Source of the DNA: Candidatus Saccharimonadota bacterium
GTDB lineage: Bacteria; Patescibacteriota; Saccharimonadia; Saccharimonadales; Saccharimonadaceae
NCBI GenBank assembly: GCA_023898645.1
Contig: CP060232.1
Coordinates: 600,001 to 632,000, forward strand
Direction: 5' to 3'
Length of the DNA: 32,000 nt
Of the stretch, positions 2,775 to 24,181 are shown one piece after another (within the stretch, counting starts at the first letter, position 1; each line of letters starts with the position of its first letter). The position numbers were made by a program, and so were the translations under genes. The notes beneath the pieces are model-generated. The model saw only the letters and a program-made list of their open reading frames with translations. It was not told the origin of the DNA and made no database searches.

Positions 2775-3563
2775 GTGGTTATAAGTAGTGAAGAAAGTAA
2801 TCAGAAATTAACTGGTCAACAGCAACGTATTCTAAAGTTATTATTCAAGTTCAGATTTGTATCAGCAGGGTTATTAGCTATGGTTATGGGTATTCGTAGA
2901 GAGGGTGTCTATCAAGTCTTAGAGCAGCTAGTAGGTAAAGGTCTAGTAACAAAGGTATACAAAGAGCAGTGGCGGATAGATCGCAAACCAGCGTACTATT
3001 ATTTGAATAAATCTGGTGTGACAATCACTCGTAAGCTTATGGATGTCAAAGAGTCTGTCGTCCATGCCCTATATAAGAATGATGAGATGACAAATGATTT
3101 TGTCGAGCATAGCCTGAAGCTTATCCGGTGTTACGCATCTATCATGCAGCACCTCCCCGAAGGCTCAGATATATTCTCCAAGACCGAGATTAACCGTTTC
3201 AAACAGTTCCCTAAAAACCGCCCAGACCTGTATATACGCACTCCGGATGGTAAAGAGGCTATTGTGGTCATAGTCGACGACAAGCCCCTCTATATCGTCC
3301 GTAAACGTTTAGATGAGATAGTAGCCCATAGCGAAGATGAAGGCTGGCCGTCCGACAATTACCCGACTATATGCTTTATCCTAAAAGATCATTCTGCTAA
3401 GTATAGCTTTCTCTATACCACCAGCAAGAAACTAGAGAGCATGGGCCTAGAAGAGAGCGAGCTACCAATTCTCGCCGCCACTCTCGGGTCATTCGACGAG
3501 CCCATCTCCTCACCGTGGTCTACACCTCTTAAGCCGAAAGAACACTCTCAGCTGTTTGCATAA
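2775..3563 (+). CDS. Replication-relaxation family protein (N-terminal winged helix)
   Basis: The N-terminus (LTGQQQRILKLLFKFRFVSAGLLAMVMGI...VYQVLEQLVGKGLVTKV) matches the pattern I associate with PF13814-type proteins. A downstream D...VDDK segment could be nuclease-like. GTG start with SD. Confidence 0.55.
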   Translation: MVISSEESNQKLTGQQQRILKLLFKFRFVSAGLLAMVMGIRREGVYQVLEQLVGKGLVTKVYKEQWRIDRKPAYYYLNKSGVTITRKLMDVKESVVHALYKNDEMTNDFVEHSLKLIRCYASIMQHLPEGSDIFSKTEINRFKQFPKNRPDLYIRTPDGKEAIVVIVDDKPLYIVRKRLDEIVAHSEDEGWPSDNYPTICFILKDHSAKYSFLYTTSKKLESMGLEESELPILAATLGSFDEPISSPWSTPLKPKEHSQLFA

Positions 3564-3977: not shown

Positions 3978-4283
3978 CTATAACCCCGGATAGCTCACAA
4001 GCCTACCTATCGTCTCTTCGTTATATTCATCGACAAGCTCCAGTTCGTAAAGCCGCTCATCGTAGTAATCTCGTAGCTCACTTGCCAGCCGAACCAGCTT
4101 CTCATCCATCTCCCAGTCCTCAATGGTGCAGCTGTTGGCAACCGCGCCACGCATCCCGTCGCCTAAGTAATTCTGATAGGCGCTCAAATACTCATCTTCG
4201 TAGCCAAAGTCGCTTAAGTCAAGCTCTACGCCTCCACCGCGGTGACTAATTTCTTCTCGAGTAATGTTTTCTTGAATACTCAT
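3978..4283 (-). CDS. Small strongly acidic protein (candidate DNA mimic or anti-restriction protein)
   Basis: From the ATG at 4283 (SD GGAG 8 nt upstream) the protein is 101 aa with about 25 D/E versus about 8 K/R. The track's longer version starts at a TTG at 4361. It is co-oriented with, and 16-94 nt downstream of, the DUF3768 gene. Confidence 0.55.
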   Translation of the reverse strand: MSIQENITREEISHRGGGVELDLSDFGYEDEYLSAYQNYLGDGMRGAVANSCTIEDWEMDEKLVRLASELRDYYDERLYELELVDEYNEETIGRLVSYPGL

Positions 4284-4376
4284 CTCAAACTCCAATGCTT
4301 TAATTTCTACTAAACCAAAAAGGAGCTGTTTATCGTCCAGCTCCACGACGTAACGCACCAAACTAAAACCGAGGAG

Positions 4377-4709
4377 CTAATACTCCTCGGCTAACATAAT
4401 AGTGAGAACTCGCTGACAGTCCGGATCGAGCGGATCGCACCACTTACTCAAATTCTCATCGTAGTAATCTATCTTCCAGAAGATTTTCTCTCCGGCTACT
4501 TTCAGTGAGCCAAAATCGTGCTCACCGTACGGATCGTTATCTTCGTTAAAGTCCGTATAATCCCTGACACCAACAAATACTTCGTTGGCGGCGGATCCCA
4601 TCGCCACGATTCCTTTCGTGACGGTACAACCTTGCATGCTACGACGATGCTCGTCGTTTAGCGCAGCTATCTTTGCTGACGTTTCGTTTTGTATTACTTC
4701 TGTGGTCAT
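4377..4709 (-). CDS. DUF3768 family protein
   Basis: Motifs NDPYGEHDFG, FWKIDYYD and RVLTIMLAEEY are the ones I recognise for DUF3768 (about 110 aa, plasmid/ICE-borne). Strong SD AAGGAGGG upstream of the ATG. Confidence 0.8.
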   Translation of the reverse strand: MTTEVIQNETSAKIAALNDEHRRSMQGCTVTKGIVAMGSAANEVFVGVRDYTDFNEDNDPYGEHDFGSLKVAGEKIFWKIDYYDENLSKWCDPLDPDCQRVLTIMLAEEY

Positions 4710-4762
4710 ATAACCCTCCTTGCTTAACGAGAGGGCTTTCTCCCTCTCTGTCTGATAGGGCT

Positions 4763-4880
4763 CGGGATGACACCAAAGCTGTCATAGGTGGAGATTCCCA
4801 TTAAGATATTCAATTAAAAGAAAACAACTTATATCTTAGGGCTGAATACTACCTTGATAGCTTTGGTTCACCCGTATACT
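4763..4880 (+). promoter_or_regulatory. Hairpin-promoter module A (long imperfect inverted repeat with -35-like box in the stem and -10-like box at the stem base)
   Basis: 5' arm 4763-4809, loop 4810-4830, 3' arm 4831-4874. TTGATA at 4854-4859, 15-nt spacer, TATACT at 4875-4880. Paralogous to module B. Confidence 0.6.
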
Positions 4881-4929
4881 GAGAAGACAGAGGGAGGAAG
4901 ACTCTTACGGACTAAGGTATAATCAGCAC

Positions 4930-5598
4930 ATGGATATTCCACTTTGGGCTTGGGCCTTAGGCTTTTTAGCGATAATAGCTGTAATCGAGCACTTCTCTGA
5001 AAAGAAAGATCGGTTAAGCGGTGTTGAAAGTAAAAATACAAACAGCGCCGATGATCTAGACCGAATTAGCGGATCCACGCTCGACTCCGTAGATCCTACT
5101 GTCATTCCGCGCAATCCGTGGGATGGCGATATAAATGGTAGAACTGTCGCACAGGGTAGTAGCTGGGATTTACTCAGGAAAGATGTTCTAAGCCGAGATA
5201 GCTACAGGTGTACGAACTGCGGCAGCAGGTCAAACTTGACGGTCGACCACAAGGTGCCACTTAGTCTTGGTGGCACAAACATAATGTCAAACCTAGCCAC
5301 TCTATGTAAAGATTGCCACGAACACAAAGACCAGCGAAAAATATTCGATAAAGCGTTCGATGCAAAAGATGACTACGGCAAAGACCATAGGCTTACTAGA
5401 AAAGTAGAAGTGTTATCGAGGGCCATCAACTCTGGGTCAAGGGTGACGATCGTGTATACCGACTACAAGGGTAACAAGACTAGCCGCATTATCTCTCCGC
5501 GACGATTAGCAAAAGATAAGGGTCGGATATATTGTATAGCGTATTGCCACCTGCGAAATGATAGACGCACTTTTAGACTGTCGCGCCTTGAAGTGTAG
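4930..5598 (+). CDS. Membrane-anchored HNH endonuclease with C-terminal WYL-like domain
   Basis: N-terminal TM helix (IPLWAWALGFLAIIAVIEHF). HNH motif (CTNCGS...LTVDHKVPLSLGGTNIMSNLATLCKDCHEHK). C-terminus VTIVYTDYKG...RIISPRRL...IYCIAYCHLRNDRRTFRLSRL resembles a WYL domain. Confidence 0.75.
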   Translation: MDIPLWAWALGFLAIIAVIEHFSEKKDRLSGVESKNTNSADDLDRISGSTLDSVDPTVIPRNPWDGDINGRTVAQGSSWDLLRKDVLSRDSYRCTNCGSRSNLTVDHKVPLSLGGTNIMSNLATLCKDCHEHKDQRKIFDKAFDAKDDYGKDHRLTRKVEVLSRAINSGSRVTIVYTDYKGNKTSRIISPRRLAKDKGRIYCIAYCHLRNDRRTFRLSRLEV

Positions 5599-5660
5599 CC
5601 ACTAAAATCTGTCCATATCATTTAAAAAGGCAGTTTATTGTCATGCCCAGGACGCCTCAG

Positions 5661-5942
5661 CTAGCGATTAGCCTCGACAATCTCATGCCAGTTCACTCTG
5701 CCGAGTGAGGCGGAGAGCAGGTCGCTCGTCAGGCTAGACTCATCTATGTCGACAATCCAGCGCGCGTACTGCTCAAGCTCTTCAGCTTGCTCATCGCTGT
5801 CGAAGTTCTTGACGATACTACAGAGTTCTTGGTAATAGCATTCGTCACCAGTCAGCCACAGGTTCACCACCCATGTCTCCCGATTACACCACCCGTTATA
5901 CTCGGTGGCTACAGTTGATGTCTCTAGAGCTACGTTTACCAT
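5661..5942 (-). CDS. Small acidic hypothetical protein
   Basis: 93-aa ORF with an ATG start and SD AAGGAG. The motif YNGWCNRETWVVNLWLTGDE recalls small phage/plasmid proteins, but I cannot name a family. Confidence 0.55.
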   Translation of the reverse strand: MVNVALETSTVATEYNGWCNRETWVVNLWLTGDECYYQELCSIVKNFDSDEQAEELEQYARWIVDIDESSLTSDLLSASLGRVNWHEIVEANR

Positions 5943-5982
5943 TTCTTTTCTCCTTTACTTTACGTAACGGAGTTAGGACACG

Positions 5983-6097
5983 GAGTCGCATGGCAAAGGT
6001 GTCACAGGTGGAGATTCCGCTTGAAAATAGCCATTAAAAGATAAGAATATTTTCAGGAGTGAATACTACCTTGACGACTTTGCTCGACTCGTATAAT
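5983..6097 (+). promoter_or_regulatory. Hairpin-promoter module B (paralog of module A)
   Basis: 5' arm 5983-6029, loop 6030-6047, 3' arm 6048-6090. TTGACG at 6071-6076, 15-nt spacer, TATAAT at 6092-6097. About 70 percent identical to module A, with compensatory arm changes. Confidence 0.6.
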
Positions 6098-6213
6098 AGG
6101 TCAGTACGTGAAGTAAGGAGTTTCATTTAACCGTCTGTTACAATACAAGCAGAAGATTCGTGTTTGGCTCGACTGCGAGAAAACAGGAGTCTTCTTTTTG
6201 CTATACTGTAATT

Positions 6214-7716: not shown

Positions 7717-8340
7717 ATGATTGGCGCTAAAGATGCGAGCAGATACACCGCAGGTCTCACTGGTGAAATTTTTCTCTTTAATGAGTCGCGTACGTTAGCT
7801 GGTTTTTTGGCACAAGGCGAGGATCCAGATGCACTTCGTACTCGTAATTTAGCCGAAAACCTCATTATGTATAAAAAAGACAGCAGCCTAAAGCGTGTTT
7901 CTCCACCGATATTCCGCCGCCTCGCCACGATGTCACCTGTCGCGCTCGAAATCTTTGTAAGTGCAGACCTGGAGTCATCACGCATCCTTCTTCTTATCGC
8001 CATCGCAAAGACAGATCGTCTGGTGCGCGATTTTTTGTTGACTGTCTACGCCGACAAGATAGCGCTCAAAGCCACTAAAATAGATAGATCAGATATCGAG
8101 CGCTACTTCGAATCAGTGTACGCCGAAGAGCCTCTTTTGCGGGATAAGTCAGATATCACTAAAATGAAGCTCAAGCAACAGCTTATGAAAAACATGGTCG
8201 AGGCCGGTCTCGTCAAAAAACAAGCTGACGGTTTTGTTGTTACGCGACCAAATATTACTACTCGTCTTGCCAATCAGTTGACCGCAGATGGTGACAGTGA
8301 GTATCTAAAAGCTTTAGGTGGTGAAGGAGGCGCATTATGA
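7717..8340 (+). CDS. brxA: BREX protein BrxA (DUF1819)
   Basis: About 200 aa, first gene of the operon, with an ATGA overlap onto brxB. Helical protein of the expected size and position. Sequence-level recognition is weaker than for the other BREX genes. Confidence 0.75.
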   Translation: MIGAKDASRYTAGLTGEIFLFNESRTLAGFLAQGEDPDALRTRNLAENLIMYKKDSSLKRVSPPIFRRLATMSPVALEIFVSADLESSRILLLIAIAKTDRLVRDFLLTVYADKIALKATKIDRSDIERYFESVYAEEPLLRDKSDITKMKLKQQLMKNMVEAGLVKKQADGFVVTRPNITTRLANQLTADGDSEYLKALGGEGGAL

Positions 8341-8909
8341 AAAAATCTATTCAAGATCGACTAAGGGACTTGCGTGGCAAAGTCCGCAGTCACGATCTGT
8401 CACAAGGCGGCGGGCTTGGTAATGAGGTTAATTACCATATTTTTGACTATGACCCTGAAGACGAGCAGGCTGTCATGCGCGAAGTCGCCAATATAGCCAA
8501 GAGCCTGAGCAATGTAAAAGTTTTCAATATCCATGACATTATCATCGAAATCCTCAAAGAAAAAAACTACCTCGAAAAATCGTTTGAACTTGAACAGAAA
8601 AAAGGCAGCGACTTCGTCAACAAGGCGATCATGCGCACCCTCAAAACCGATAGCAAAAACGGTCTCATCGTCGAAAAGATCGCTAGAGGCGTCAAAAAAG
8701 GCGATATCATTTTTCTTACCGGCATAGGTCAGTCGCACCAAATTATCCGCGCACATACACTGCTGGCCAACCTCCAGAGCGTTATTAACGACACCGAAAA
8801 TCCCGTTATTTTGTTTTACCCCGGCAGCTACGATAGGCAGGCACTCAGCTTGTTTAACGTATTTCCGGCCGAAAATTATTACCGAGCATTCAAATTAGTT
8901 GAGAGATAA
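8337..8909 (+). CDS. brxB: BREX protein BrxB (DUF1788)
   Basis: 190 aa with IFDYDPEDE near the N-terminus and FYPGSYD...NYYRAFKL at the C-terminus, which are the hallmarks I recognise for DUF1788. Confidence 0.85.
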   Translation: MKKSIQDRLRDLRGKVRSHDLSQGGGLGNEVNYHIFDYDPEDEQAVMREVANIAKSLSNVKVFNIHDIIIEILKEKNYLEKSFELEQKKGSDFVNKAIMRTLKTDSKNGLIVEKIARGVKKGDIIFLTGIGQSHQIIRAHTLLANLQSVINDTENPVILFYPGSYDRQALSLFNVFPAENYYRAFKLVER

Positions 8910-8927
8910 AGAAAGGTTCAAGCCCAT

Positions 8928-11900
8928 ATGCAATTGAAGGATCTATACAAAAAAGATATCACCCGTGAGATTCAGGGTGTCATTAAAGTTGACGACGAAC
9001 ACTCGATCGCCCAAGAGCTCGACGAATATATCGTCACCGATGAGATTGCCAAGCATCTCGATACATTCTTCGAAAGCTACAGCAAAGGACTCGGCACCTC
9101 TCGCACCGAGCAGATGGGCGTCTGGCTGTCTGGTTTCTTTGGATCAGGTAAGTCACACTTTCTCAAGATTGTCAGTCACTTGCTCGACAACCGCGAAGTA
9201 AACGGCAAAAAAGCCGTCGACTACTTCGACGACAAAATTCATGACGCCATGCTACTTGGCAATATCAAACGTGCTGGCGAGACGTCTTCTGACATCATCC
9301 TCTTCAATATCGACACCAAATCTTCGCTCGAAAACACCACGAGCAAGGATAAGATCCTTGCAGTGATCGAAAAAGTCTTCAACGAAAAGCTCGGCTTCAG
9401 CCACATTAATTTCGTTGCCGATATCGAACGCCATCTACAAGAAAAGGGTAAATACGAAGAGTTCAAAGCTAAATTTGACGACTGGTCATCGATTCGTTCA
9501 GACTTCGACTTCAACCAGTACGAAATCGCCGAAAAATACGCCGAAGTCATGGGCGTCAGCTCCGATGAAGCCAACAAAATCTTCGACAACCGCCGCGACA
9601 CCTACCAAGTTTCACCTGAGTCATTTGCTCAGCGGGTGCAGGAATACATCGAAAAACGCGGCAACGACCATCACGTAGTTTTCCTTATCGACGAAGTTGG
9701 TCAATATATCGGCAACAATGGCTCACTTCTGCTCAACCTCCAGTCAATCGTCGAAGAGCTCGGCGTACGCACCAACGGCCGCGCATGGGTCATTTGTTCC
9801 AGTCAAGAAGCCATCGACGATGTCGTAAAAGGTGTCAAAAAGGACGACTTCTCGAAGATTCTTGGTCGCTTCGACACCAAAATCAAGCTCTCTAGCACCG
9901 ATATCGACGAAGTTATCCGCCAGCGACTGCTCGCCAAGACAGACGACGCTACGACGTCACTGGTGTCCACTTACAACACTCGTCAGGCAGAGATTGCCAA
10001 CCTGCTTACTTTCGGTGAAGGTGGCACCTACAAGGCCACCTACCGCAGCGCTCAAGATTTTGCCGCTACCTATCCGTACATCCCGTACCAGTTCAAGCTC
10101 CTGCAAGATACCTATATGAGCATCCGTGAGAAAGGCTTTGCGGGTGCACACCTAAGCTCTGGTGCTCGTTCACTTCTCGGCGCTATCCAGGAGACCGCAA
10201 AGGCTCATGCAAACAGCGAGATTGGGACACTTGTACCGTTTTCCGCCTTTTTTGAAACCGTTGTTACGGCAATAGATAGCTCGATCATTCAAATATTCGA
10301 TCAAGTGGACAGGATGATTAAAGAAGGTGTACTTGAGCCGCAAGATAAAGAAATATTGAAGACGCTTTTTATGTTGCGCAGTGCTCAAGAAACGATGCCG
10401 ACCAATCTCGATAACCTAGCCGTCCTTTCAGTGACAAATTTGTCAGACAATATCCTCGATATCAAAAAGAATCTTGCCGATAGCCTGAAGCGGCTCGAAG
10501 ACCGCGTGCTCATCCAAAAGCTCGGCGACAACTACCGCTTCCTCACCGACGAAGAACAAGACATCAACCGCGAAATCAAAAGCCAAACCTTTGATCCGAA
10601 TGACATCTCGACTACGCTTGGCGAAGTGATTCGCGGCACTATCGACTCGAAGTACAAATACACTAATGGCCGTGTTTTCTCGCTCGATCTCTTCATGGAC
10701 GATAACAAAATTAATGGTGGCTCAAACGAATTAGCCCTCAGGTTCACCTCGGGCGAGCTACAATCTGTCCAGGCTGAATCGATGCGCCAAAGCAACGCAG
10801 CATTTATCATCACGCCACTGTCGATCGACCTCCGCAACGACATCGAAACTGCTGTAAAGGTTGAAAAATACATCCGCTCACAAGCTGGTATCAAGAACGA
10901 CCCAGAGCGCGACAAGATTATCGCCGCTCGCCGCACCGAAATGGAAGGCCTCAAGGAGAAGATCTCCGCTGACTTCGCCGACAATATCCGAAGCGCCGCT
11001 GTCGCCATCAACGGTACAGAAGTCGACATCCCAGCCCGTGAAAGTGTCACGACTCGCCGCGATCTCATCCTGGAAGAGCTCGTCAAATCCGTGTACACCA
11101 AGATCGAATACATCAAAGCACCGTGTAGCCGCAGCAATATCAAGCGTCTGCTGACACTGCCAAAAATGGAGCTCGAAGTCGCTACCGCCAACACCAAGGC
11201 CGAAGACGCCATCAACGAATACATCATCGAGCAGGCTCGCAACCACGTACCGGTCACCCTCGAAAGTATCGTGCGCGATTTCAAATCAGCCCCATTCGGC
11301 TTCACCGACGAAGATGTCGCCTACATCGTAGCGTACCTTATGAAAACCGAGCTAATCAGCTTAATCTACAATGGCACGACACTCGCACCAACTGCCGATA
11401 CCGCAGATATCTTGCTCAAATCAGCCAATGACGGCAAAATCACCATCAAAGTCCGTGAACGCATCGATAACCAACTGCTCGATACTGTCCGTAGCTTGGC
11501 GCGCGATTTGTTCGACACCACCGCACTCGGTGATACCGAGGACGCTATGGCAGATAGTCTACGCCACGAAATTGATACCAAGCTCGAAGCTACAACTGCT
11601 TATTTGCAGAAGTACAACTACGCTAGCTATCCGGGCAAGTCTGTCGTCGAGAGTGTCAATACGCTTCTTCGTGAGCTCAAACAAATCCGCGACACCAAAG
11701 ACCTGTTCGATGTGCTTGATGCCAAGCAGAACGACCTGCGCACGGCGTTCGACGCCTACAAGCCAGTTGTCAGCTTCTTTGAACACCAAGTAGCTATCTT
11801 TGACCGAGCCATAGCAGCTGTCAAAGATTACGATTTCGTTAGCTCGTCTATCACTGTTAATTCACCAGAAGTCACCCAGATTCGCGACATCTTGGCACAG

Positions 11901-12236
11901 GATAGCCCGTACGGTGACATCCCGAAGCTTTCGCCATTGACATCTGCCGTGGAGCAGGCTGTCAAAACTGGCCGCGACGAGCTCCAAAAGCGTGCCGACG
12001 AAGCCCGCAAGCTCGAAGAGCAGCGCCGCAAAGCCGAAGAAGAGGCGAGGAGGGCCGAAGCCGCAGGCCAGCAGCCAGCCGAACTACCAAAAGTCGCCAA
12101 ACCTGTCCGTTCGGGCGATCTCATCAACCGCACTTACTCGCTGAAGAGTGAGGCTGATGTCGACGCCATGCTCGGCGAACTTCGCCAGCGACTACTACAA
12201 GAACTTGCCGACAATGGCGAGGTAAGGGTTATTTAG
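8928..12236 (+). CDS. brxC: BREX ATPase BrxC/PglY
   Basis: 1102 aa. P-loop GFFGSGKSHFLK near residue 70, DEVGQY Walker-B-like segment, and a position between brxB and pglX. Confidence 0.9.
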   Translation: MQLKDLYKKDITREIQGVIKVDDEHSIAQELDEYIVTDEIAKHLDTFFESYSKGLGTSRTEQMGVWLSGFFGSGKSHFLKIVSHLLDNREVNGKKAVDYFDDKIHDAMLLGNIKRAGETSSDIILFNIDTKSSLENTTSKDKILAVIEKVFNEKLGFSHINFVADIERHLQEKGKYEEFKAKFDDWSSIRSDFDFNQYEIAEKYAEVMGVSSDEANKIFDNRRDTYQVSPESFAQRVQEYIEKRGNDHHVVFLIDEVGQYIGNNGSLLLNLQSIVEELGVRTNGRAWVICSSQEAIDDVVKGVKKDDFSKILGRFDTKIKLSSTDIDEVIRQRLLAKTDDATTSLVSTYNTRQAEIANLLTFGEGGTYKATYRSAQDFAATYPYIPYQFKLLQDTYMSIREKGFAGAHLSSGARSLLGAIQETAKAHANSEIGTLVPFSAFFETVVTAIDSSIIQIFDQVDRMIKEGVLEPQDKEILKTLFMLRSAQETMPTNLDNLAVLSVTNLSDNILDIKKNLADSLKRLEDRVLIQKLGDNYRFLTDEEQDINREIKSQTFDPNDISTTLGEVIRGTIDSKYKYTNGRVFSLDLFMDDNKINGGSNELALRFTSGELQSVQAESMRQSNAAFIITPLSIDLRNDIETAVKVEKYIRSQAGIKNDPERDKIIAARRTEMEGLKEKISADFADNIRSAAVAINGTEVDIPARESVTTRRDLILEELVKSVYTKIEYIKAPCSRSNIKRLLTLPKMELEVATANTKAEDAINEYIIEQARNHVPVTLESIVRDFKSAPFGFTDEDVAYIVAYLMKTELISLIYNGTTLAPTADTADILLKSANDGKITIKVRERIDNQLLDTVRSLARDLFDTTALGDTEDAMADSLRHEIDTKLEATTAYLQKYNYASYPGKSVVESVNTLLRELKQIRDTKDLFDVLDAKQNDLRTAFDAYKPVVSFFEHQVAIFDRAIAAVKDYDFVSSSITVNSPEVTQIRDILAQDSPYGDIPKLSPLTSAVEQAVKTGRDELQKRADEARKLEEQRRKAEEEARRAEAAGQQPAELPKVAKPVRSGDLINRTYSLKSEADVDAMLGELRQRLLQELADNGEVRVI

Positions 12237-12237
12237 T

Positions 12238-15200
12238 ATGAGCTCGATGGACAAAAAACTACTCAAAGACTTTGCTATGAAATCGCGCGAAACGCTGACC
12301 GCGCTTGTTGCCGCCAAACTTCAAGCCATGCACGTCACCGAAGATATCGCCTGGGTGCAAAAAGGCGAAGTTTACCAGGCTATCATCGATGGCCGTAATG
12401 TCACACTGTACCCGAGTGACAAAGACCGTTACGACAAGCTTCGTGCCGCAGTCAAAGCCGAAGGTATCAAGCAGATCACCGAAAAAGCCGCCTACACCTG
12501 GTTCAACCGCATTGTCGCCATCCGCTACATGGAGCTTCGCGAGATGTTACCACAGGGCAAACACAACGAATGGCTCGGTATTCGCGTATTATCAGACGGC
12601 AACAACGAACCCGACCCAGAAATCCTAAAGATCAGTAACTTGCGAAGAGCAGATCTCGACCTCCCGCTAAACGCCGATGATATCATCAAACTCCCACGCG
12701 ACGACCAAAAGTTCCGCGAGGTACTGTTTGCCGTTGTCAAAAAGCTCGGGGCAGTCATGCCAGACGTCTTCAACGGCGACACGACTAGCATTAACTTCCT
12801 GCTTCCAGACAACTTGCTCGGCAGCGGCGGTTTTGTCAATGAAATCCTCAAACTCCCCGTAGAGTGCTTCGACAGGGTCGAAGTCATCGGCTGGCTGTAC
12901 CAATACTACAACCAAGCCGAAAAAGACATCGCCATGAAAAAGAAGTCGGCGGTCGAAAAAGATGAGATCCCCTATGTCACCCAGATTTTCACCCCTGACT
13001 GGATCGTCAAATACATGGTCGAAAACTCCCTTGGTCGCTACTGGCTGGAGCATGGCGGCGACCCTAAGCTAGCCGACAACTGGAAATACTTGATCAAGAG
13101 CGACCAGCAAGTGACGACGACAAAGACTATGCCGAACATCGAAGACGTCACGTTTATCGACCCCTGCATGGGTAGTGGGCACATCCTCGTCTACGCCTTT
13201 GAGGTGTTTTACCAGATTTATCGTTCGCTGGGCTACGCCCCAGAGCAAATTCCAGAAAAGATCCTCTCGCACAACATCTACGGCCTGGATATCGATGACC
13301 GCGCTAAACAACTATCAATCCTCTCGGCTATGCTTGTGGCCAGGGAGTACGACAAAGACATATTCAGCAAAGACATTCAGCTGAATATTACTAGTGTCGC
13401 CGAAAGCAACGGCATGAGCAGCCTGCCAGACCTACTGAAAGGCGCCAGCAAAGACACCGCCGAATACCTACTCGACGCCTTTCGTGATGCCAAAGAATAC
13501 GGCAGTATATTGCGAGTCAAATCGCAAAACTACACCGACCTGCAAAGCCAGCTAGAAGAATTATCCCCAATAGAGAAACCACTTTACTACGCCAAAACAA
13601 AACAGCTCATCCACCAAGCAGACATTCTAAGTAAAAAGTACACGATTGCGGTGACGAATCCGCCGTATATGAACAAATACGACGCCAAATTAAAAGCCTA
13701 CATTGGTGCAAATTATCCCGAGACTAAGTCGGATATGTACTCCGTATTTATGGAAGTCCTAAGTGATCATCTCGTTAGCGGCGGACGCATGGCAATGGTC
13801 ACACCGGATAGCTGGATGTCCTTGACGGGGCAAGCCAAACTTCGCGAGCGTCTAGAAAACGAAGCTCACATATCGAGCATGATTCACCTTGGTAATGGCG
13901 CGTTCCCAGATGTCGTCGTGTCTACGACCGCATTTACGCTCGTAAAGGGCGATGCTATTTCGATCGGCGATTACATCCGAGATGTTACCGGCAACGAGAA
14001 AACCAAGTATGCCACCGCACTCGCCGCCATCGACGATCCGCACCACCCTCTCCGCTACCGCGCCAGCAACGCCGATTTCGAGGTATTCCCGGGCAAGATT
14101 ATTGCGTATTGGGCGAGCGAGGCTGTGAGGAAGGCTTTTGTCATTGGCGTCAATCTAAGGGGCAGTGCGTGGGAGCCTAGGCAGGGGGCGGCCACTTCTG
14201 ATAATAATCGCTTTCTTAGATTATGGTATGAAGTTAATAGCACGAAAACTAATCTGAACGCCGAATCTGCGATCGAAGCAACACAATCTGCAAAAAAGTG
14301 GTTCCCGTACAACAAGGGCGGCGAATTTCGTAAGTGGTACGGTAATAATGACTTCTTAATTAACTATGAAAATGACGGCGAAGAATTAAAGGGTTACGCT
14401 AAAAGCCTATATAAATCAGCAACTCGCACAATAAAAAGTATTAGTGAATATTTCAAACCAAGTATAACTTGGTCAAAAATCTCGTCCGGTTCGATTGCAT
14501 TTCGTTACAAACCAGCCGGACATATCTTTGATGTAGCAGGTACAAGTATATTCGCCGACGATGCTCAGGATCTCAAGTATCTTCAAGGCGTGCTTAACAG
14601 CAGTGTAATATTAAAAATATCTAGTTATTTATCGCCAACCCTCAACTTCGAAGTTGGTCAAATCGCGACTTATCCAATTATCCAATCGCCGCAATATCGC
14701 GATGAAGTCATTCGCCTGGTCGAAGAATGTCGTGAACTCAGTAAAGCCGATTGGGACGCCTTTGAAACTTCATGGGACTTCGAGCGTCATCCACTCTTGC
14801 CGACGAGTGGCGAGACCAAGCTAAGTGACATGTACGCCGTCTGGGAATCAACCGCCGAGGATCGCTGGAGTCAGCTAAAAGCCAACGAAGAGCGGCTGAA
14901 CGAAATCTTCATTGAAGTTTACGGCATGCAGGGTGAACTGACGCCGGAGGTAGAAGACAAATATGTCAGTGTGCGCAAGGCCGACCAGTCGCGCGAAGCT
15001 CGCTCGCTGCTGTCGTATTTCGTCGGTGTCATCTTTGGTCGCTATAGCCTCGATAGCCTCGGACTCAACTTCGCCGGTGGCGAGTGGGACGCCAGCGCAC
15101 AAGGTAAACTAGTCGACGAAGATAACATCGTACCGATCATGGATGGCGAATACTACACTGACGATATAGTGAAGAAACTGCGCGACTTCCTCGTGGCCGT

Positions 15201-15723
15201 CTACGGCGAAGCAACGCTGCACGCAAACATGGACTGGCTTGCCAATGCCCTGGGGCGCAAATCGCACGAAAACGCCGAAGATACACTGCGCCGCTACTTT
15301 GTCGATGATTTCTTTGCCGACCATTTCAAAGTTTACGGCAAACGCCCAATCTACTGGCAACTCAGCAGCGGTAAACAAAACGGCTTCAAAGCATTGTTTT
15401 ACCTGCACCGCTACCAGCCAAATCTCGTAGCCACCGTCCGTACGCAGTATTTGCTTAACACCCAAAACATCTACACCAAGCGCCTAGCCGAGCTGGAGGC
15501 AAAAACGACGCTAAACAACGACGAACTCCGCCTAAAAAACGACCTCGTGGCCAAACTCGCCGAGATCAAAAGCTACGACGCACTGATCGGCGTGGCCGCC
15601 AGCGAAGCCATAGAGCTCGACCTCGACGACGGCGTTAAGACAAACTACCCCAAGCTCAGCCACGCCGCTGCAGGCGTAAAGCCTGGCAGTGAAATCCTCG
15701 AGACGAAAGGGGTCAAGCTATGA
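12238..15723 (+). CDS. pglX: BREX adenine-specific DNA methyltransferase PglX
   Basis: 1161 aa. SAM-binding motif FIDPCMGSGH, catalytic VTNPPYM, and a conserved WFPYNKGGEFRKWYG segment. Confidence 0.95.
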   Translation: MSSMDKKLLKDFAMKSRETLTALVAAKLQAMHVTEDIAWVQKGEVYQAIIDGRNVTLYPSDKDRYDKLRAAVKAEGIKQITEKAAYTWFNRIVAIRYMELREMLPQGKHNEWLGIRVLSDGNNEPDPEILKISNLRRADLDLPLNADDIIKLPRDDQKFREVLFAVVKKLGAVMPDVFNGDTTSINFLLPDNLLGSGGFVNEILKLPVECFDRVEVIGWLYQYYNQAEKDIAMKKKSAVEKDEIPYVTQIFTPDWIVKYMVENSLGRYWLEHGGDPKLADNWKYLIKSDQQVTTTKTMPNIEDVTFIDPCMGSGHILVYAFEVFYQIYRSLGYAPEQIPEKILSHNIYGLDIDDRAKQLSILSAMLVAREYDKDIFSKDIQLNITSVAESNGMSSLPDLLKGASKDTAEYLLDAFRDAKEYGSILRVKSQNYTDLQSQLEELSPIEKPLYYAKTKQLIHQADILSKKYTIAVTNPPYMNKYDAKLKAYIGANYPETKSDMYSVFMEVLSDHLVSGGRMAMVTPDSWMSLTGQAKLRERLENEAHISSMIHLGNGAFPDVVVSTTAFTLVKGDAISIGDYIRDVTGNEKTKYATALAAIDDPHHPLRYRASNADFEVFPGKIIAYWASEAVRKAFVIGVNLRGSAWEPRQGAATSDNNRFLRLWYEVNSTKTNLNAESAIEATQSAKKWFPYNKGGEFRKWYGNNDFLINYENDGEELKGYAKSLYKSATRTIKSISEYFKPSITWSKISSGSIAFRYKPAGHIFDVAGTSIFADDAQDLKYLQGVLNSSVILKISSYLSPTLNFEVGQIATYPIIQSPQYRDEVIRLVEECRELSKADWDAFETSWDFERHPLLPTSGETKLSDMYAVWESTAEDRWSQLKANEERLNEIFIEVYGMQGELTPEVEDKYVSVRKADQSREARSLLSYFVGVIFGRYSLDSLGLNFAGGEWDASAQGKLVDEDNIVPIMDGEYYTDDIVKKLRDFLVAVYGEATLHANMDWLANALGRKSHENAEDTLRRYFVDDFFADHFKVYGKRPIYWQLSSGKQNGFKALFYLHRYQPNLVATVRTQYLLNTQNIYTKRLAELEAKTTLNNDELRLKNDLVAKLAEIKSYDALIGVAASEAIELDLDDGVKTNYPKLSHAAAGVKPGSEILETKGVKL

Positions 15724-18224
15724 ATCAAGAGATCGTAAATGGCCTAGCTAAACTTCTACATAACCCAAGCATTGCCGGGCGGCGAATCGTTACCTGGTAC
15801 GACGCCGATGGGGCGAATGCTGAATATTTAGACGATATCAAACAGGCACTGCTGGATGACGGCATTGACGTCGAGATTGTTATCTTCGACGACAATCCGC
15901 TATTTGTGCGTTACCATGTACTAAATGAGGTGCGTGAGAGCAATGTCATCATCTACCGACCAACCGAACAGCCAGAGAGCGTCGATAATCAGTTGCTCGA
16001 CATCGAACTGGCCAACGCCAGCGACGTGTTTATACCAGACGAATCAACCCTGACGTTGACGGCGCTAGGGCTTTCCGACCAGTTCCGTGGTGTCGTGAAA
16101 CGCAATGGGCGATTCTTCAAAAACCAAAAGCGGGCTCGGGATATCAAGAAGTTTCTGCCCGTGAGTGAACCAAATGACTTACAGATGGCGATATTCGCCA
16201 CACTGTTTGACGCCAATGATGCCCGCCTAGAGCAGGTGTTGGCTGCGATATTCGTGAACTACAGGCAATCACGTGATGATTTTACCAACACACTGAAGTT
16301 TGTAGATAGCGAAGCACTCGCTAGCTTGTTGAGTGAGTATTTCGGGTCTCAAGCAGTCGATATCGAAAAGCTCGATAACTTGTGGGAATCGGTGCTCATC
16401 AGTTACTTCAAGTCTACGGTGAGCGCAGACATAGACTTCGGTAGGTTCAAGAGCTTTGTGCTGCCAAACCACGGTAACATCCGTATCTTTGTGCGCGATG
16501 TGATGCGCCTGTTTCCAGATGAGTTTACGGCGTTTTCCGCTGATGTTAACAAAAAGTTCGGTCTAGTTAGATTACTTGAAGGCCGTGAACTAGCGGAATA
16601 TATCGACAGCGACGCCTTCGCCGAGATTGACGATATCGTGATTACAGAGATGATCAAACGACTCTCAGACAAAGATGATATAGCTGAGCTGCTCCGTAGC
16701 CGCGAAGTCGGGTTTTACTATGTGGCGCGAAAAGCTGACTACCAGATGCTTGCTGCTGCCAACAACTTCCGCACCACAGCACGCCGAATCATGACAGAAG
16801 TAAAAAGCGTCGATCGAGACACCGCAATCTCGCGTTACGCCGACGAGTTATACAAAGTCGATACAGCCTACCGTCATTTTAACTATTACTATGACCGTAC
16901 CGATAAAACCGATGAGTACATGGAGCTGGCAAAGCAAATCGAGTATCTGTACGGCGAAGAATGGATGCTGAAGCTTGCCGAAAAATGGGAAGAATCTTCG
17001 GAGGGTGAAAACTGGACGGCAACCAAGCACTCAATACTCAGTGAGTTTTATAGCAAGTACCTAACACCGCACGACGATAAAAAAGACCGCGTATTCGTGA
17101 TTATATCTGACGGCCTACGCTACGAAGTCGCCAAAGAAATTGCCGAGCAGCAAAAACTAATTGCTACCGGTGGCGATATCTCGACCAGCTTCGCCCTAGC
17201 GCTGCTGCCGTCTATCACACCCGTTGGCATGGCGGCATTGCTCCCGCACGACAAACTAGAGTTTGACGGCGAAACAGTGCTGGCAGACGGCATGAAAACC
17301 GACGCCAGCAACCGCGACAAGGTGCTAAAAGCCGCCAACCCAGACAACTTGGCTATTAAATACGAAGAAGTCCGCGCCATGAAGAAGTCAGAGTGGAAAT
17401 CGTTCTTTTCTGGCAAAAAATACGTCTATATTTACCACGACAAAATCGACATCACCGGCGAGCACGACGACATGGCGACATTTGCCGCCGCGAGCGACGC
17501 GATTCGTGAAATCACTGATCTCATCACCGACCTACATACGACATTTAGCGGCGTTAATGTACTCGTCACTGCCGATCACGGGTTTTTCTACGAAACCGGC
17601 ACAGTAGAGTCACGACGCAAAATGCCGAAGATTCCCGAGGCTGGCAAGCAGAAAGCTCGCTATGCGATAACCGCCGCACCAGACAAGTCGGCTATGAGCT
17701 ACCGACTCAGTGATATGTTCGAAGGCAATACTAAGTACATCAATACGCCACACTCCAAGGTCATCTTTGCCAAGCAGGGTGGCGTCGGCCGATACTACCA
17801 TGGCGGCGCACTGCCACAAGAAGTCGTCGTACCGATTGTCAACTTCAAATCCTCACGCACCAGTACAGCTAGGGACAGAGTAGGAATTACCTATATCGGC
17901 ATCTCGCTCAAAATCACCAATACTATTACGCGTCTGCGCTTCCTGCAAAGCGAGCCAGTTAGTACTGACCGGATAGCTGGTCGCTACAAGGCGTGGTTTG
18001 AGGACGCTAGCGGTGCAAAAATATCCGACGAAGTAACGATCATAGCCGATTCGACCGAAAAGGATGCCGGAAGCCGCGAATATCAAGAGAAGTTTGTGTT
18101 TGCAGCGCGGCAGTACAGCCCGGAAGAGACATACTTCTTGGTGATTGAAGATGAAGATGGCGTAGAAGTTGAGCGAATAGATTTCAAGGTAGATATAGCA
18201 ATAACCAACGATTTAGGATTATAG
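15720..18224 (+). CDS. pglZ: BREX alkaline-phosphatase-superfamily protein PglZ
   Basis: 834 aa. PglZ-type motifs VFVIISDGLRYE and VTADHGF. ATGA overlap with pglX. Confidence 0.9.
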   Translation: MNQEIVNGLAKLLHNPSIAGRRIVTWYDADGANAEYLDDIKQALLDDGIDVEIVIFDDNPLFVRYHVLNEVRESNVIIYRPTEQPESVDNQLLDIELANASDVFIPDESTLTLTALGLSDQFRGVVKRNGRFFKNQKRARDIKKFLPVSEPNDLQMAIFATLFDANDARLEQVLAAIFVNYRQSRDDFTNTLKFVDSEALASLLSEYFGSQAVDIEKLDNLWESVLISYFKSTVSADIDFGRFKSFVLPNHGNIRIFVRDVMRLFPDEFTAFSADVNKKFGLVRLLEGRELAEYIDSDAFAEIDDIVITEMIKRLSDKDDIAELLRSREVGFYYVARKADYQMLAAANNFRTTARRIMTEVKSVDRDTAISRYADELYKVDTAYRHFNYYYDRTDKTDEYMELAKQIEYLYGEEWMLKLAEKWEESSEGENWTATKHSILSEFYSKYLTPHDDKKDRVFVIISDGLRYEVAKEIAEQQKLIATGGDISTSFALALLPSITPVGMAALLPHDKLEFDGETVLADGMKTDASNRDKVLKAANPDNLAIKYEEVRAMKKSEWKSFFSGKKYVYIYHDKIDITGEHDDMATFAAASDAIREITDLITDLHTTFSGVNVLVTADHGFFYETGTVESRRKMPKIPEAGKQKARYAITAAPDKSAMSYRLSDMFEGNTKYINTPHSKVIFAKQGGVGRYYHGGALPQEVVVPIVNFKSSRTSTARDRVGITYIGISLKITNTITRLRFLQSEPVSTDRIAGRYKAWFEDASGAKISDEVTIIADSTEKDAGSREYQEKFVFAARQYSPEETYFLVIEDEDGVEVERIDFKVDIAITNDLGL

Positions 18225-18231
18225 GAGGCGC

Positions 18232-20265
18232 ATGATGGACGAGATTGACACAAAACTAAACCAAGTATTTCCGGGAAGAGTTGTCCGTAAAGACCTGACG
18301 AAGAAAATCAAGGAAGGTGCCAATGTGCCAGTGTATGTGCTGGAGTATCTGCTAGGTATGTACTGTGCAACAGACGATCCGGTGGCCATCGAAGACGGCA
18401 TCGCAACAGTAAAGAAGATCCTAGCTGAGAACTTCGTCCGACCAGACGAAGCGCAAAAGGTGAAGAGTAAGATTCGTGAGCTCAAAAACTACACGGTTAT
18501 CGATAAAATCACCGTCAAGCTCAATGAAAAGAAGGATCGCTACGAGGCGGAGTTTAGTAACCTTGGCATCAAAGATGCTTACATTGATGCTGAGATTGTC
18601 AAAAAGTTCGAGAAGCTCTTGGTCGGTGGCATCTGGTGTATAACGAAGATTTCCTATTTTCATGACGAAGAAGAGCGCAATAATCTACCGTTTGTTGTCA
18701 ATGACATCAAGCCGATTCAGATGCCAAATATGGATCTAGAGGAAGTATTCAACGGCCGTCGTCAGTTTAGTAAAGACGAATGGATCGATGCGCTGATTCG
18801 TTCGATGGGCATGGAGCCATCACAGCTCGATACCCGCCAGAAATGGCACTTCCTAGAGCGTGCCGTGCCACTTGTTGAGAATAATTACAACTTGTGCGAG
18901 CTTGGCCCGCGCGGTACCGGTAAGTCACATATCTACAAAGAAATTTCACCGAACTCTATCTTGGTATCTGGTGGTCAAACGACTGTCGCTAATTTGTTCT
19001 ACAATATGTCGAATAAAACCGTTGGCCTCGTTGGGCTGTGGGATGTAGTAGCTTTTGACGAAGTTGCCGGAATTACCTTCAAAGACAAAGACGGCATCCA
19101 GATCATGAAAGATTACATGGCGTCTGGATCGTTTGCACGCGGTAAGGAAGAAAAGAACGCAACCGCTTCGATGGTATTCGTTGGCAATATCAACCAATCA
19201 GTCGAGGTAATACTAAAGACATCTAACTTGTTCGAGCCGTTCCCCGAAGCTATGAACCGCGATACCGCGTTCTTTGATCGCATGCATTACTATCTGCCGG
19301 GCTGGGAGATTCCAAAGATGCGACCAGAGCTTATTACGAATAGCTATGGGTTCATTGTTGATTACTTGGCAGAGTTCTTCCGCGAGATGCGCAAGCGCAC
19401 ACACAGCGATGCTATCGACAAGTACTTTAGGCTGGGCAAGGAGCTAAATCAACGAGACGTGATTGCGGTAAAAAAGACCGTCTCAGGACTTGTAAAATTA
19501 CTGTATCCGCACGGTGAATTTAGTAAGGACGAGATCGAGGAAGTTATTCGCTACGCTATCGAAGGTCGTCGTCGTGTCAAAGAGCAGCTGAAGCGAATCG
19601 GCGGCATGGAATTCTTTGACATTCACTTATCGTACATCGACAACGATAACGACGAGGAGCGAATCGTATCCGTACCCGAGATTAGCGGCGACAAGTTGAT
19701 TTCTGACACAGCGCTCAAGGCTGGTCATGCATACTTTGTTGGTCGTGGTACATCCGGGCAGATCGGCACCTTCCGTATCGAAACCGAGACTCCTGGCGGT
19801 AACGGCAAGATGTCTATCACCGGAATTGGCACTGATAGGCTTACGAAAGAATCGATCAACACAGCTTTTCACTATTTCAAGGCTAACCGCAAAAGCATCA
19901 GCGCCAGTATGAACGTCGATAGTAACGACTTCTTGATTCATATCGAAGACCTGCAAGGGGTAGGCCCAAGTAGCGAAATTGCACTCGCAACGTTTGTATC
20001 CCTCGTATCATCTTCGCTTAAGAAGCAGGTCAAAGAAGGCATGGTCGTGCTCGGCAACCTTACGATCGGTGGCACAATCAGCAAAGTCGATGACTTAGCT
20101 GACACGCTCGAAGTTTGTTTCGACGCCGGTGCTCGCACGATACTGCTACCAATGTCATCTGCTGCGGACATCTCCACCGTACCCGCCGAAACTTTCTCAA
20201 AGTTCAACATCAGCTTCTACAATGACCCCGAGGATGCTGTGCGAAAGGCGCTAGAGATCGGATAG
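18232..20265 (+). CDS. brxL: BREX Lon-like protease BrxL
   Basis: 677 aa. Walker A ELGPRGTGKSH, AAA-like core and a C-terminal Lon-protease-like domain. It lies 8 nt after pglZ. Confidence 0.9.
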   Translation: MMDEIDTKLNQVFPGRVVRKDLTKKIKEGANVPVYVLEYLLGMYCATDDPVAIEDGIATVKKILAENFVRPDEAQKVKSKIRELKNYTVIDKITVKLNEKKDRYEAEFSNLGIKDAYIDAEIVKKFEKLLVGGIWCITKISYFHDEEERNNLPFVVNDIKPIQMPNMDLEEVFNGRRQFSKDEWIDALIRSMGMEPSQLDTRQKWHFLERAVPLVENNYNLCELGPRGTGKSHIYKEISPNSILVSGGQTTVANLFYNMSNKTVGLVGLWDVVAFDEVAGITFKDKDGIQIMKDYMASGSFARGKEEKNATASMVFVGNINQSVEVILKTSNLFEPFPEAMNRDTAFFDRMHYYLPGWEIPKMRPELITNSYGFIVDYLAEFFREMRKRTHSDAIDKYFRLGKELNQRDVIAVKKTVSGLVKLLYPHGEFSKDEIEEVIRYAIEGRRRVKEQLKRIGGMEFFDIHLSYIDNDNDEERIVSVPEISGDKLISDTALKAGHAYFVGRGTSGQIGTFRIETETPGGNGKMSITGIGTDRLTKESINTAFHYFKANRKSISASMNVDSNDFLIHIEDLQGVGPSSEIALATFVSLVSSSLKKQVKEGMVVLGNLTIGGTISKVDDLADTLEVCFDAGARTILLPMSSAADISTVPAETFSKFNISFYNDPEDAVRKALEIG

Positions 20266-20274
20266 GTAGATATT

Positions 20275-22611: not shown

Positions 22612-22716
22612 CTGTTCGATTTGTCGTCGTGGACGCTACGCACCTAGGATAAAACATTGACCATTCGCCATTTTATATGCTACATTTATTTTTGAAGGGT
22701 CTTGTATGATACTTAC

Positions 22717-22752
22717 GACGCTCCGAGGGTATATCCTTCGGCGCGTCTTTTT
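22717..22752 (+). terminator. Rho-independent terminator closing the seven-gene operon
   Basis: 13-position stem at 22717-22729 / 22735-22747 (one mismatch, one G-T), loop TATAT, then TTTTT at 22748-22752. Confidence 0.7.
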
Positions 22753-22835
22753 ATATTATCGGCAGTGTATCGGTCTTCAACGAAGTTCAGACCTACCTCT
22801 CGTTTGAACGATTTGCCGCAAACGGAAGGTTGCCT

Positions 22836-23186
22836 ATGCCAACACGTACAAGACGACGCTTACGGGAGCATACGGTGGGACTATTGGCGCGCAAATGGAC
22901 GCTAAAGATTGCAACGGCTCTCAGTAGTGAAACCATGCGTCACTCTGAGATTGCGAGGTGCTTGCCTGGCATCACACAAAAAGTATTGACCGAAACACTC
23001 CGCGAAATGGAGCGGACTGGTATTGTTGAACGAGAGGTATACCCAATCGTGCCACCAAAGGTTGAGTATAGACTTACTAGCGTAGGGATTGAGTTGCTAA
23101 AATTATCTCAAGAATTTGCCAGTTGGTTCGATACACATCACGAAAACATACATAAGGCCAAGCGAATCTACGACCGACACTCGTAA
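22836..23186 (+). CDS. HxlR-family winged-helix transcriptional regulator
   Basis: LLARKWTLKIATALSSETMRHSEIARCLPGITQKVLTETLREMERTGIVEREVYPIVPPKVEYRLT is a typical HxlR-type HTH. The ATG at 22836 has SD GGAAGG. The track starts at the TTG at 22830. Confidence 0.8.
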   Translation: MPTRTRRRLREHTVGLLARKWTLKIATALSSETMRHSEIARCLPGITQKVLTETLREMERTGIVEREVYPIVPPKVEYRLTSVGIELLKLSQEFASWFDTHHENIHKAKRIYDRHS

Positions 23187-23827: not shown

Positions 23828-24172
23828 GTGGGGCTAAAAAAGACACAATACATCGTAGCACTTATTATCGCAGTCGGTCTGCCATTCATTTTGGCTGATC
23901 CTGCATTTGCACAAACACCGGGCGGCGTAAGTAACGTCGAAAACTTTATACGGAGCGTAATCACCGTTCTGGCAGGACTTGCCGGTCTGGTTGCGACCGG
24001 CTTTTTTGTCGCTGGTGGATTCACCTATATCACGAGTTCGGGTAATCCTGAGCAGCTCGACAAGGCAAAGCGTACACTGACTTGGTCAGCAATCGGACTG
24101 GCTATCGTTATCGCTGCTTTTGTCCTAGCTAACATCGTCACGACACTCGCAACACAGGCGTTCGGAGGATAA
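23828..24172 (+). CDS. T4SS pilin (VirB2/TrbC-like, Gram-positive/CPR type)
   Basis: Signal peptide ending AFAQ, two hydrophobic helices, and the motif GGFTYITSSGNPEQLDKAKRTL. GTG start with SD GAGGGAG. Confidence 0.7.
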   Translation: MGLKKTQYIVALIIAVGLPFILADPAFAQTPGGVSNVENFIRSVITVLAGLAGLVATGFFVAGGFTYITSSGNPEQLDKAKRTLTWSAIGLAIVIAAFVLANIVTTLATQAFGG

Positions 24173-24181
24173 TCAAAAACC

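Follow-up and report, generated by a model that had tools for sequence, protein, structure and literature searches.

Two paralogous hairpins of a Saccharibacteria island belong to a conserved, strand-specific folded-DNA family and are proposed to act as single-stranded-DNA promoters

A 32,000-nt stretch of contig CP060232.1 from a Candidatus Saccharimonadota bacterium (GenBank assembly GCA_023898645.1, positions 600,001 to 632,000; hereafter the window) carries an island integrated at a tRNA gene (384-455) and, within it, two long hairpins, modules A (4763-4880) and B (5983-6097). These modules belong to a family that is a real, strongly conserved, strand-specific folded-DNA element. Judged from sequence comparison, they are probably a new class of single-stranded-DNA (ssDNA) promoter, not homologous to the known ones, which would be active only while the + strand is single-stranded. 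Conjugating DNA passes into its recipient cell in single-stranded form. The first-pass annotation of this DNA had put forward an ssDNA promoter from which RNA polymerase would exit leftwards into minus-strand genes, and that idea is supported by base-pair covariation, by the strand on which wobble pairs occur, by an invariant -10 element and by fixed spacing.

Structure of the modules

The arms of A and B are 76-78% identical, compared with the roughly 70% first estimated, and the two modules are paralogous, imperfect hairpins of about 40-45 bp each. Folded as ssDNA, the + strand had a free energy of -24.4 kcal/mol in A and -23.6 kcal/mol in B. The corresponding z-scores from DNA folding were -5.33 and -5.28, with none of 200 shuffled sequences folding equally well, and when both strands were folded the + strand was the more stable in each module. 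Finer features described in the first-pass annotation were recovered as well, including an AG/A internal loop (4792-4793/4848 in A and 6012-6013/6065 in B), a one-nt bulge after TGTCA (T4785 and C6005, respectively) and differences between the arms of A and B that are compensatory. Both modules also carry, as had been claimed, a -35-like hexamer paired within the 3' (non-template) arm and a -10-like hexamer 15 nt beyond it: TTGATA (4854-4859) and TATACT (4875-4880) in A, TTGACG (6071-6076) and TATAAT (6092-6097) in B.

The -10-like hexamer had been placed right after the last base pair. This is correct for the upper stem but not for the end of the hairpin, as in both modules a lower stem, missed in the first-pass annotation, follows beyond an unpaired bubble. 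The -10-like hexamer therefore lies inside a ready-made internal bubble, the size of which is quoted here as 9-13 nt. DNA folds of the + strand extended module A to a whole element of lower stem, bubble, upper stem, core and apical stem-loop at 4736-4901, while module B, from DNA folds and a lower-stem test, extended to 5950-6120. The lower stem of A pairs 4736-4753 with 4885-4901, its bubble consists of 4754-4762 on the template side and 4875-4884 on the 3' side (TATACT being the first six, unpaired bases of the latter), and its upper hairpin spans 4763-4874, with the core halves AGGTGGAGATTC at 4786-4797 and GAATACTACCT at 4844-4854. For B, 5950-5968 pairs with 6103-6120 in the lower stem, the bubble comprises 5969-5982 on the template side and 6092-6102 on the non-template side, where TATAAT is found, and the upper hairpin runs from 5983 to 6091 with core halves at 6006-6017 and 6061-6071. 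The template (5') arm contains two extra bulged nucleotides in A and a 3-nt CAT bulge (5989-5991) in B.

Several known hairpin types were considered and rejected. A DnaA box within the hairpin, as in the A-site of an ABC primosome, was dismissed on inspection, since one arm of the core agrees with TTATCCACA at only about 6 of 9 positions and the other arm is a poor match. The R''/R' boxes of an integron attC site (RYYYAAC/GTTRRRY) are absent, and the sole recombinase is a large serine recombinase. The defining features of a terminator were absent as well.

Distribution of the core

Homologues were sought with the exact 21-nt core, GGTGGAGATTC-N30-60-GAATACTACC. The one-genome-per-species contigs contained 34 core loci, 24 of which were true hairpins, mainly from Saccharibacteria metagenome-assembled genomes (MAGs) and also from Pedobacter (2), Dysosmobacter, an Oscillospiraceae MAG and a Clostridia MAG. 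The metagenome collection contributed 69 further loci (about 58 true hairpins), and in total the exact core was found in about 80 homologues, mainly Saccharibacteria but also Bacteroidota, Bacillota and termite-gut elements. A scan of viral contigs with the core pattern gave no match. This recurrence of the exact core with a 30-60 nt gap is far above chance. A covariance model built from 21 Saccharibacteria copies revealed extra copies with variant cores in loci already found, and within the window it matched module A at 4759-4889 (122.5 bits) and module B at 5979-6106 (120.5 bits) and no further copies. Exact-core matches in Lon protease genes and in three other coding regions were coincidences and were removed. 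The Lon matches, with a core pattern gap of 58 nt, came from several phyla (loci L007, L010, L011, L023, L026, L032 and L034) and are coding (QVEIL...EYYL).

One exact-core copy plus one adjacent variant copy was the count in each of three long sequences, a complete genome of 1.04 Mb and two contigs of 0.83 and 0.97 Mb. With one exact-core copy per approximately 0.8-1.0 Mb, and two copies in the window, the family is not a dispersed repeat or miniature inverted-repeat transposable element (MITE). A MITE-like miniature mobile repeat, or a part of an insertion sequence, might be suspected from the repeated inverted-repeat form of the modules and from the IS30-like or rve transposases that adjoin some Bacillota copies. 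We consider this highly improbable given the copy counts, the fixed position of the modules relative to the start codon, and the lack of homology between loci L001 and L031 in the stretch from hairpin to transposase. An IS30-like insertion-sequence part was rejected directly, as these two loci share the transposase coding sequence alone.

The window and six loci were compared with Rfam 15 at gathering and permissive thresholds (E up to 10), returning only chance matches to microRNA precursors far below the gathering score. Module B and the Dysosmobacter hairpin gave chance matches only in BLAST searches of PLSDB (72,556 plasmids, F-type included). In the literature searched we found neither the core sequence nor ssDNA promoters outside enterobacterial plasmids.

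Covariation and strand specificity

Among 28 Saccharibacteria copies aligned to the covariance model, 91.2% of the alignment cells were paired, compared to 34-48% when the partners were slid by 1-3 columns. Changes on both sides were observed at 21 of 36 pairs (127 cells), compared to 8-12 pairs (12-24 cells) in the slid controls, and these covariation values were reached by none of 500 shuffles. Since a model-fitted alignment is biased, we also made a structure-blind MAFFT alignment, which had compensatory changes in 15 of 29 predicted pairs. Pairing was preserved outside Saccharibacteria as well, where 15 distinct copies were 94% paired (41-53% in controls). The lower stem covaries among subtypes, and its folding energy was -12.5 kcal/mol with cognate flanks, compared to -7.8 kcal/mol with shuffled (p 3e-17) and -9.6 kcal/mol with non-cognate flanks.

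The wobble pairs identify the strand that folds. G.T or T.G pairs were counted 112 times and A.C or C.A pairs 19 times, and the GGTGGAGATTC-bearing strand was the more stable in all folds. The excess of G.T over A.C places the folded strand antisense to the adjacent gene, as its template, and the fold is thus not an mRNA leader structure of that gene. A 5' untranslated region (UTR) structure in the mRNA of the left gene was excluded on the same grounds, as the wobbles would turn into A.C mismatches on that strand.

Covariation and G.U-type wobbles would be equal for RNA and for ssDNA of one strand, and a structured RNA of + sense, for example an antisense or divergent non-coding RNA overlapping the 5' end of the left gene, could account for them. 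This is nevertheless quite unlikely. The upstream + strand has no conserved promoter and is occupied by the Shine-Dalgarno (SD) sequence and start codon of the left gene, the hairpin is followed by neither a terminator nor a T-run, no Rfam family was matched even at the permissive threshold, and the conserved -35 and -10 with their fixed spacing at the 3' end of the hairpin are left unexplained by an RNA model.

Promoter boxes across the family

The box features lay outside the search pattern and were thus unselected by it. TAYAMT was observed directly past the last upper-stem pair in 28 of 28 aligned copies (13 TATACT, 9 TATAAT and 6 TACACT), with its T, A, A and T positions invariant and the remaining bubble sequence variable. 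Most of these copies have a -35-like hexamer (TTGAYN), and the spacer is 15 nt in 25 of the 28. The template arm is longer than the non-template arm by 2-4 nt in 26 of 27 copies because of the conserved bulges. Just upstream of the -35 lies the core GGTGGAGATTC/GAATACTACC, containing a G.T wobble and a 2x1 internal loop, which is probably an upstream recognition or architectural element.

In the other phyla the 3' arm retains TTGACA, separated from the core by 0-7 nt, and this variable distance marks the -35 as a separate element. Boxes resembling TATAAT, TACAAT or TAAAAT follow it in unpaired DNA in L049, L063, L095, L024, L083 and L084, while L079 has a full bubble and lower stem. L063, L095 and L024 have in common a GTGTCA-ATGATGGG-TGACAC hairpin about 55 nt 5' of the core. 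Their -10 is of the extended type (TGATATAAT or TGATACAAT) and follows TTGACA by only 11-12 nt. In variants with an unpaired spacer, 11-12 nt of ssDNA can span the same distance as 17 bp of duplex. Another variant, from the metagenomes (L042, L046, L053, L069, L074, L075, L077, L080, L081, L090 and L102), has an asymmetric 11-nt/4-nt loop leading from the core to TTGACT and lies 200-280 nt 5' of genes for RelB/DinJ-like antitoxins or HigB-like toxins; a clear -10 was not seen in it.

Neighbouring genes and strands

All 27 Saccharibacteria copies tested have an SD-led gene on their left, on the opposite strand, starting 35-56 nt from the 5' end of the model. These left genes belong to the families DUF3768, DUF7249 or DUF2958. 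The predicted product of the module A transcript is DUF3768 (4377-4709, - strand, Pfam E 1.3e-25), whose gene starts at 4709, 54 nt from the module, with the SD AAGGAGGG as the complement of 4714-4721. For module B it is a 93-aa DUF7249 protein (5661-5942, - strand, Pfam E 1.1e-9), whose gene starts at 5942, 41 nt away, with the SD AAGGAG as the complement of 5950-5955 in the 5' arm of the lower stem. Both genes, their SD sites and their distances are as first described. The right neighbour is inconsistent, being co-directional at 25, convergent at 12 and absent at 2 of 39 loci, and the copies within multi-copy loci (the window included) stand on one strand in 25 of 25, at 0.5-2.5 kb from each other. 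The constancy of the left gene, the inconsistency of the right neighbour and the common strand of the copies all favour the leftward direction originally suggested.

If read-through gave a minus-sense RNA of module B, the lower stem (5950-5955 with 6115-6120) would hold the SD AAGGAG paired to an anti-SD. One may speculate that such SD sequestration could silence translation of duplex-derived transcripts.

The boxes read rightwards in duplex DNA, and the 25 loci with a co-directional right gene are what might be expected of an ordinary duplex element without single-stranded function, either a promoter directed rightwards that has a large palindromic operator, or a cruciform. The first-pass annotation had likewise pointed the duplex boxes towards the HNH-WYL and small membrane-protein genes on the right. 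Neither this assignment nor the suggestion that direction depends on strand state was supported, since 14 of the 39 loci lack a co-directional right gene and the right-hand genes have their own -10 close to the ATG. In the window these are TATAAT at 4918-4923 and TATACT at 6202-6207 on the + strand, each 6 nt ahead of the ATG and with no SD, implying leaderless mRNAs. The same ATG-proximal TATAAT/TATACT boxes were observed in the right flanks of L003, L008, L015, L020, L028, L029 and L030, and they indicate that the organism uses a -10 of the TATAAT type. A duplex role would also predict neither the asymmetry of G.T over A.C, nor the conserved bulges of one arm, nor a conserved unpaired bubble with a covarying lower stem, nor a 15-bp spacer, and we regard it as very unlikely. 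In contrast to the apparently leaderless right-hand genes, those assigned to the hairpins have a strong SD and predicted leaders of 25-45 nt.

A standard sigma-70 scan (16-18 nt spacers) found no conventional leftward promoter directly upstream of the DUF3768 and DUF7249 genes, the boxes with a 15-nt spacer being outside its range. A conserved conventional promoter leading leftwards into the left genes was also not visible across the loci examined.

A folded + strand might instead serve solely as a single-strand initiation site (sso/ssi-like), recruiting RNA polymerase or a primase to lay down a short primer for the complementary strand without expression of neighbouring genes. The strand-specific fold and the position of L001 close to a rolling-circle Rep gene would suit such a site, and the Frpo promoters of conjugative plasmids share with the sso of rolling-circle plasmids the logic of a -35/-10 in folded ssDNA (PMC12672017). 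Priming, however, needs no fixed distance of 35-56 nt to an SD-led gene (27/27), no lower stem built from a 5' UTR, and no set of at least two copies, each ahead of a different gene. The ssoA CS-6 sequence TAGCGT is moreover absent from both modules, and the plasmid BLAST search gave no similarity. We consider priming unlikely as the only function, and it is compatible as a secondary role. An ssoA-type origin (CS-6 TAGCGT/TAGCGA, RSB) was rejected as such, with TAGCG in neither module and no plasmid similarity.

In at least 18 loci the leftmost hairpin has a relaxase candidate at a distance of 0.4-1.9 kb, which shares its strand and converges on the genes assigned to the hairpins, and 15 of the 18 match PF13814 (Replic_Relax), the MOBC relaxase class (PMC5357655). 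The candidate in the window (2775-3563, + strand) likewise lies on the folded-hairpin strand, convergent with the module A operon. Its own Pfam match is weak (E 7.6e-5, below the Pfam cut-off), while 15 of its 18 syntenic homologues match PF13814, with a best E of 4.9e-15. The literature searched gave no polarity for MOBC systems from which the transferred strand could be read. The Pedobacter locus L005 is ordered as hairpin, RadC, Abi_alpha, Toprim primase, NikA-like protein, MOBP relaxase and tra genes, all co-oriented. This layout is that of the IncI1/F map, where leading genes run towards the origin of transfer (oriT) and the relaxase operon away from it, and by analogy with the RP4/R64/F model the folded strand of L005 would be the transferred (T) strand.

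Searches with DUF3768, DUF7249 and DUF2958 gave no match in NCBIfam, none by sequence in the PDB and no PHROGs family with a known function. Conjugative plasmids of Alphaproteobacteria commonly carry DUF3768, grouped with toprim, ParB-like, zincin/ArdC-like and Fic genes that share its orientation. It is thus typical of co-oriented, leading-type blocks on conjugative plasmids, while an anti-defence role of the genes downstream of the hairpins is unproven.

Other features of the island

A large serine recombinase is encoded at 402-2063 on the - strand. A 67-aa ribbon-helix-helix (RHH)-like open reading frame (ORF; 2332-2535, - strand) is divergent from the relaxase candidate, and between the two lies an AT-rich intergenic region (2536-2774) with palindromes at 2615-2655 and 2676-2701. 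This region is a possible oriT and the RHH-like ORF may encode an accessory protein. A hairpin resembling a terminator, with a T-rich tail, was observed on the - strand at 4367-4392, exactly at the stop codon of the DUF3768 gene, and is followed by a 127-aa ORF (3978-4361). It may end or attenuate the module A transcript ahead of this ORF.

The HNH-WYL gene (4930-5598, + strand) is located to the right of module A. A second conserved hairpin at about 6138-6195 (AGAAGATTC...GAGTCTTCT, with an inner CTCG-ACTG-CGAG) was observed just 5' of the small membrane-protein gene, and it recurs in the right flanks of L002, L014, L016 and L019. The cargo (7717-23186) includes a complete type 1 BREX system (BrxA, B, C, PglX-like methylase, PglZ and BrxL), after which come an AAA_13 ATPase and an HxlR regulator. 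The defence cargo of sister islands differs, L033 for instance having a type I restriction R subunit, SocA/Panacea and YfbU. A monoderm-type type IV secretion system (T4SS) occupies 23828-31732 on the + strand.

Discussion

The fold, the strand that forms it, the conservation of the boxes and the associations with genes and strands are shown by the comparisons above, and polymerase binding, the start site, the choice of transferred strand and shut-off in duplex DNA are inferred. A proposed model for the modules begins with the + strand, the putative transferred strand of an integrative conjugative element, becoming unpaired, whereupon each module would fold. The upper stem would restore a duplex -35 (TTGAYN) on the 3' arm, the -10 (TAYAMT) would be presented pre-melted on the non-template side of the 9-13 nt bubble, and the lower stem would serve as downstream duplex for the polymerase. 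The host sigma-A RNA polymerase holoenzyme would then bind as it does on a fork-junction or pre-opened promoter and start at the downstream edge of the bubble, opposite about 4751-4754 in A and about 5966-5969 in B. By copying the 5' arm and 5' flank it would produce SD-bearing leaders of about 43 nt (A) and 25 nt (B) and the mRNAs for DUF3768 and DUF7249. Once the complementary strand has been made, the hairpin would be lost, leaving boxes in the opposite orientation at an unfavourable 15-bp spacing, and expression would be expected to stop. As proposed for Frpo, the transcripts made from the fold might additionally serve as primers for the complementary strand.

Several points weigh against a promoter function. 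The predicted activity derives from comparing sequences, and the covariance-model alignment leans towards the structure that was modelled. The 15-nt spacer is non-canonical and can be explained only ad hoc, through the bulged geometry. The core is unlike a classical UP element, and a clear -10 is missing from the termite-gut type, L001, L031 and the Pedobacter variants. Some variants adjoin transposases rather than recognisable transfer genes. A recent survey argues that most Patescibacteria T4SS are without relaxases and may not conjugate (PMC12102498, 2025), and a nick on the - strand would mean that the + strand never enters the recipient. On the matter of spacing, the bulges of the template arm may compensate for the short spacer.

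The core appears to be common to integrative conjugative elements, conjugative transposons and rolling-circle elements of Patescibacteria, Bacteroidota and Bacillota. A tentative reading of this distribution, about which we are doubtful, is that GGTGGAGATTC/GAATACTACC acts as a portable docking module, bringing to folded ssDNA either RNA polymerase or a different host factor that is universally conserved. In that case ssDNA promoters would be an ancient trait of DNA transfer that spans phyla, and those T4SS islands of Saccharibacteria that have MOBC relaxases would be true conjugative elements with a single-stranded stage.

Experimentally supported ssDNA promoters have so far come from enterobacterial IncF and IncI plasmids. 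Should the modules prove to be such promoters, the principle would extend to bacteria of the candidate phyla radiation and probably to Bacteroidota and Bacillota. The family is backed by base-pair covariation and not by the folding of single sequences, and it offers a compact, testable architecture of about 165 nt with a duplex -35, a -10 in a bubble, a downstream stem and an upstream core. A strand-specific promoter active only in ssDNA, in the company of a serine recombinase, a tRNA integration site and a MOBC relaxase, would be an argument that these islands, at the least, are transferred or replicated in the form of ssDNA. The core may also be of use as a search key for leading regions in metagenomes and as a part for engineering early expression from conjugatively delivered DNA.

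Comparison with known systems

The first-pass annotation called the modules Frpo-like, which is apt as an analogy but not as homology, since sequence similarity is absent. Frpo1 and Frpo2 (ssi; class 1) of IncF/IncI1 plasmids are, like the modules, long imperfect hairpins of one strand in which a -35/-10 is restored by folding. Their downstream genes are also antisense on the 5' side of the folded strand, and several paralogous copies occur per element, on one strand and near the relaxase and oriT. The same layout is seen in Frpo2 of F, a fold of the T strand with ssb antisense on its 5' side. Differences are nevertheless clear. BLAST of module B showed no similarity to Frpo/ssi1-3, and the Frpo2 fold is about 330 nt and GC-rich, while the modules are about 165 nt. 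Unlike Frpo, the modules present their -10 within a defined bubble, past which comes a lower stem formed by the 5' UTR, their non-template spacer is 15 nt and a conserved core is located upstream of the -35. The hosts also differ, being Patescibacteria with relatives in Bacteroidota and Bacillota, as does the relaxase, which is of the MOBC type.

The single-strand origins ssoA, ssoU, ssoT and ssoW of rolling-circle plasmids, sso1 of ICEBs1 and the minus-strand origin of filamentous phages are folded ssDNA of a specific strand and orientation, on which host RNA polymerase is engaged through -35/-10-like elements. Compared with the modules, the sso origins make short primers and are not placed before genes, and their RSB and CS-6 motifs are absent from the modules. 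Fork-junction and pre-melted bubble templates used in vitro combine a duplex -35 with a single-stranded non-template -10, and sigma-70 holoenzyme binds them tightly with no need for melting. Those templates are artificial, whereas the modules encode the same geometry naturally in one strand.

The largest survey of leading regions, by Samuel et al., dropped the MOBC class from its downstream leading-region analysis. The class 2/3 ssDNA promoters of pESBL and F (ssp2; upstream of klcA, ardA and M.EcoGIX) are non-homologous hairpins before leading-region operons, with start sites mapped in transconjugants (PMC12672017). These are experimentally validated and come from enterobacteria only, while the evidence for the family of modules A and B is comparative. 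They do provide a precedent for ssDNA promoters falling into several unrelated classes, of which the modules would probably be another.

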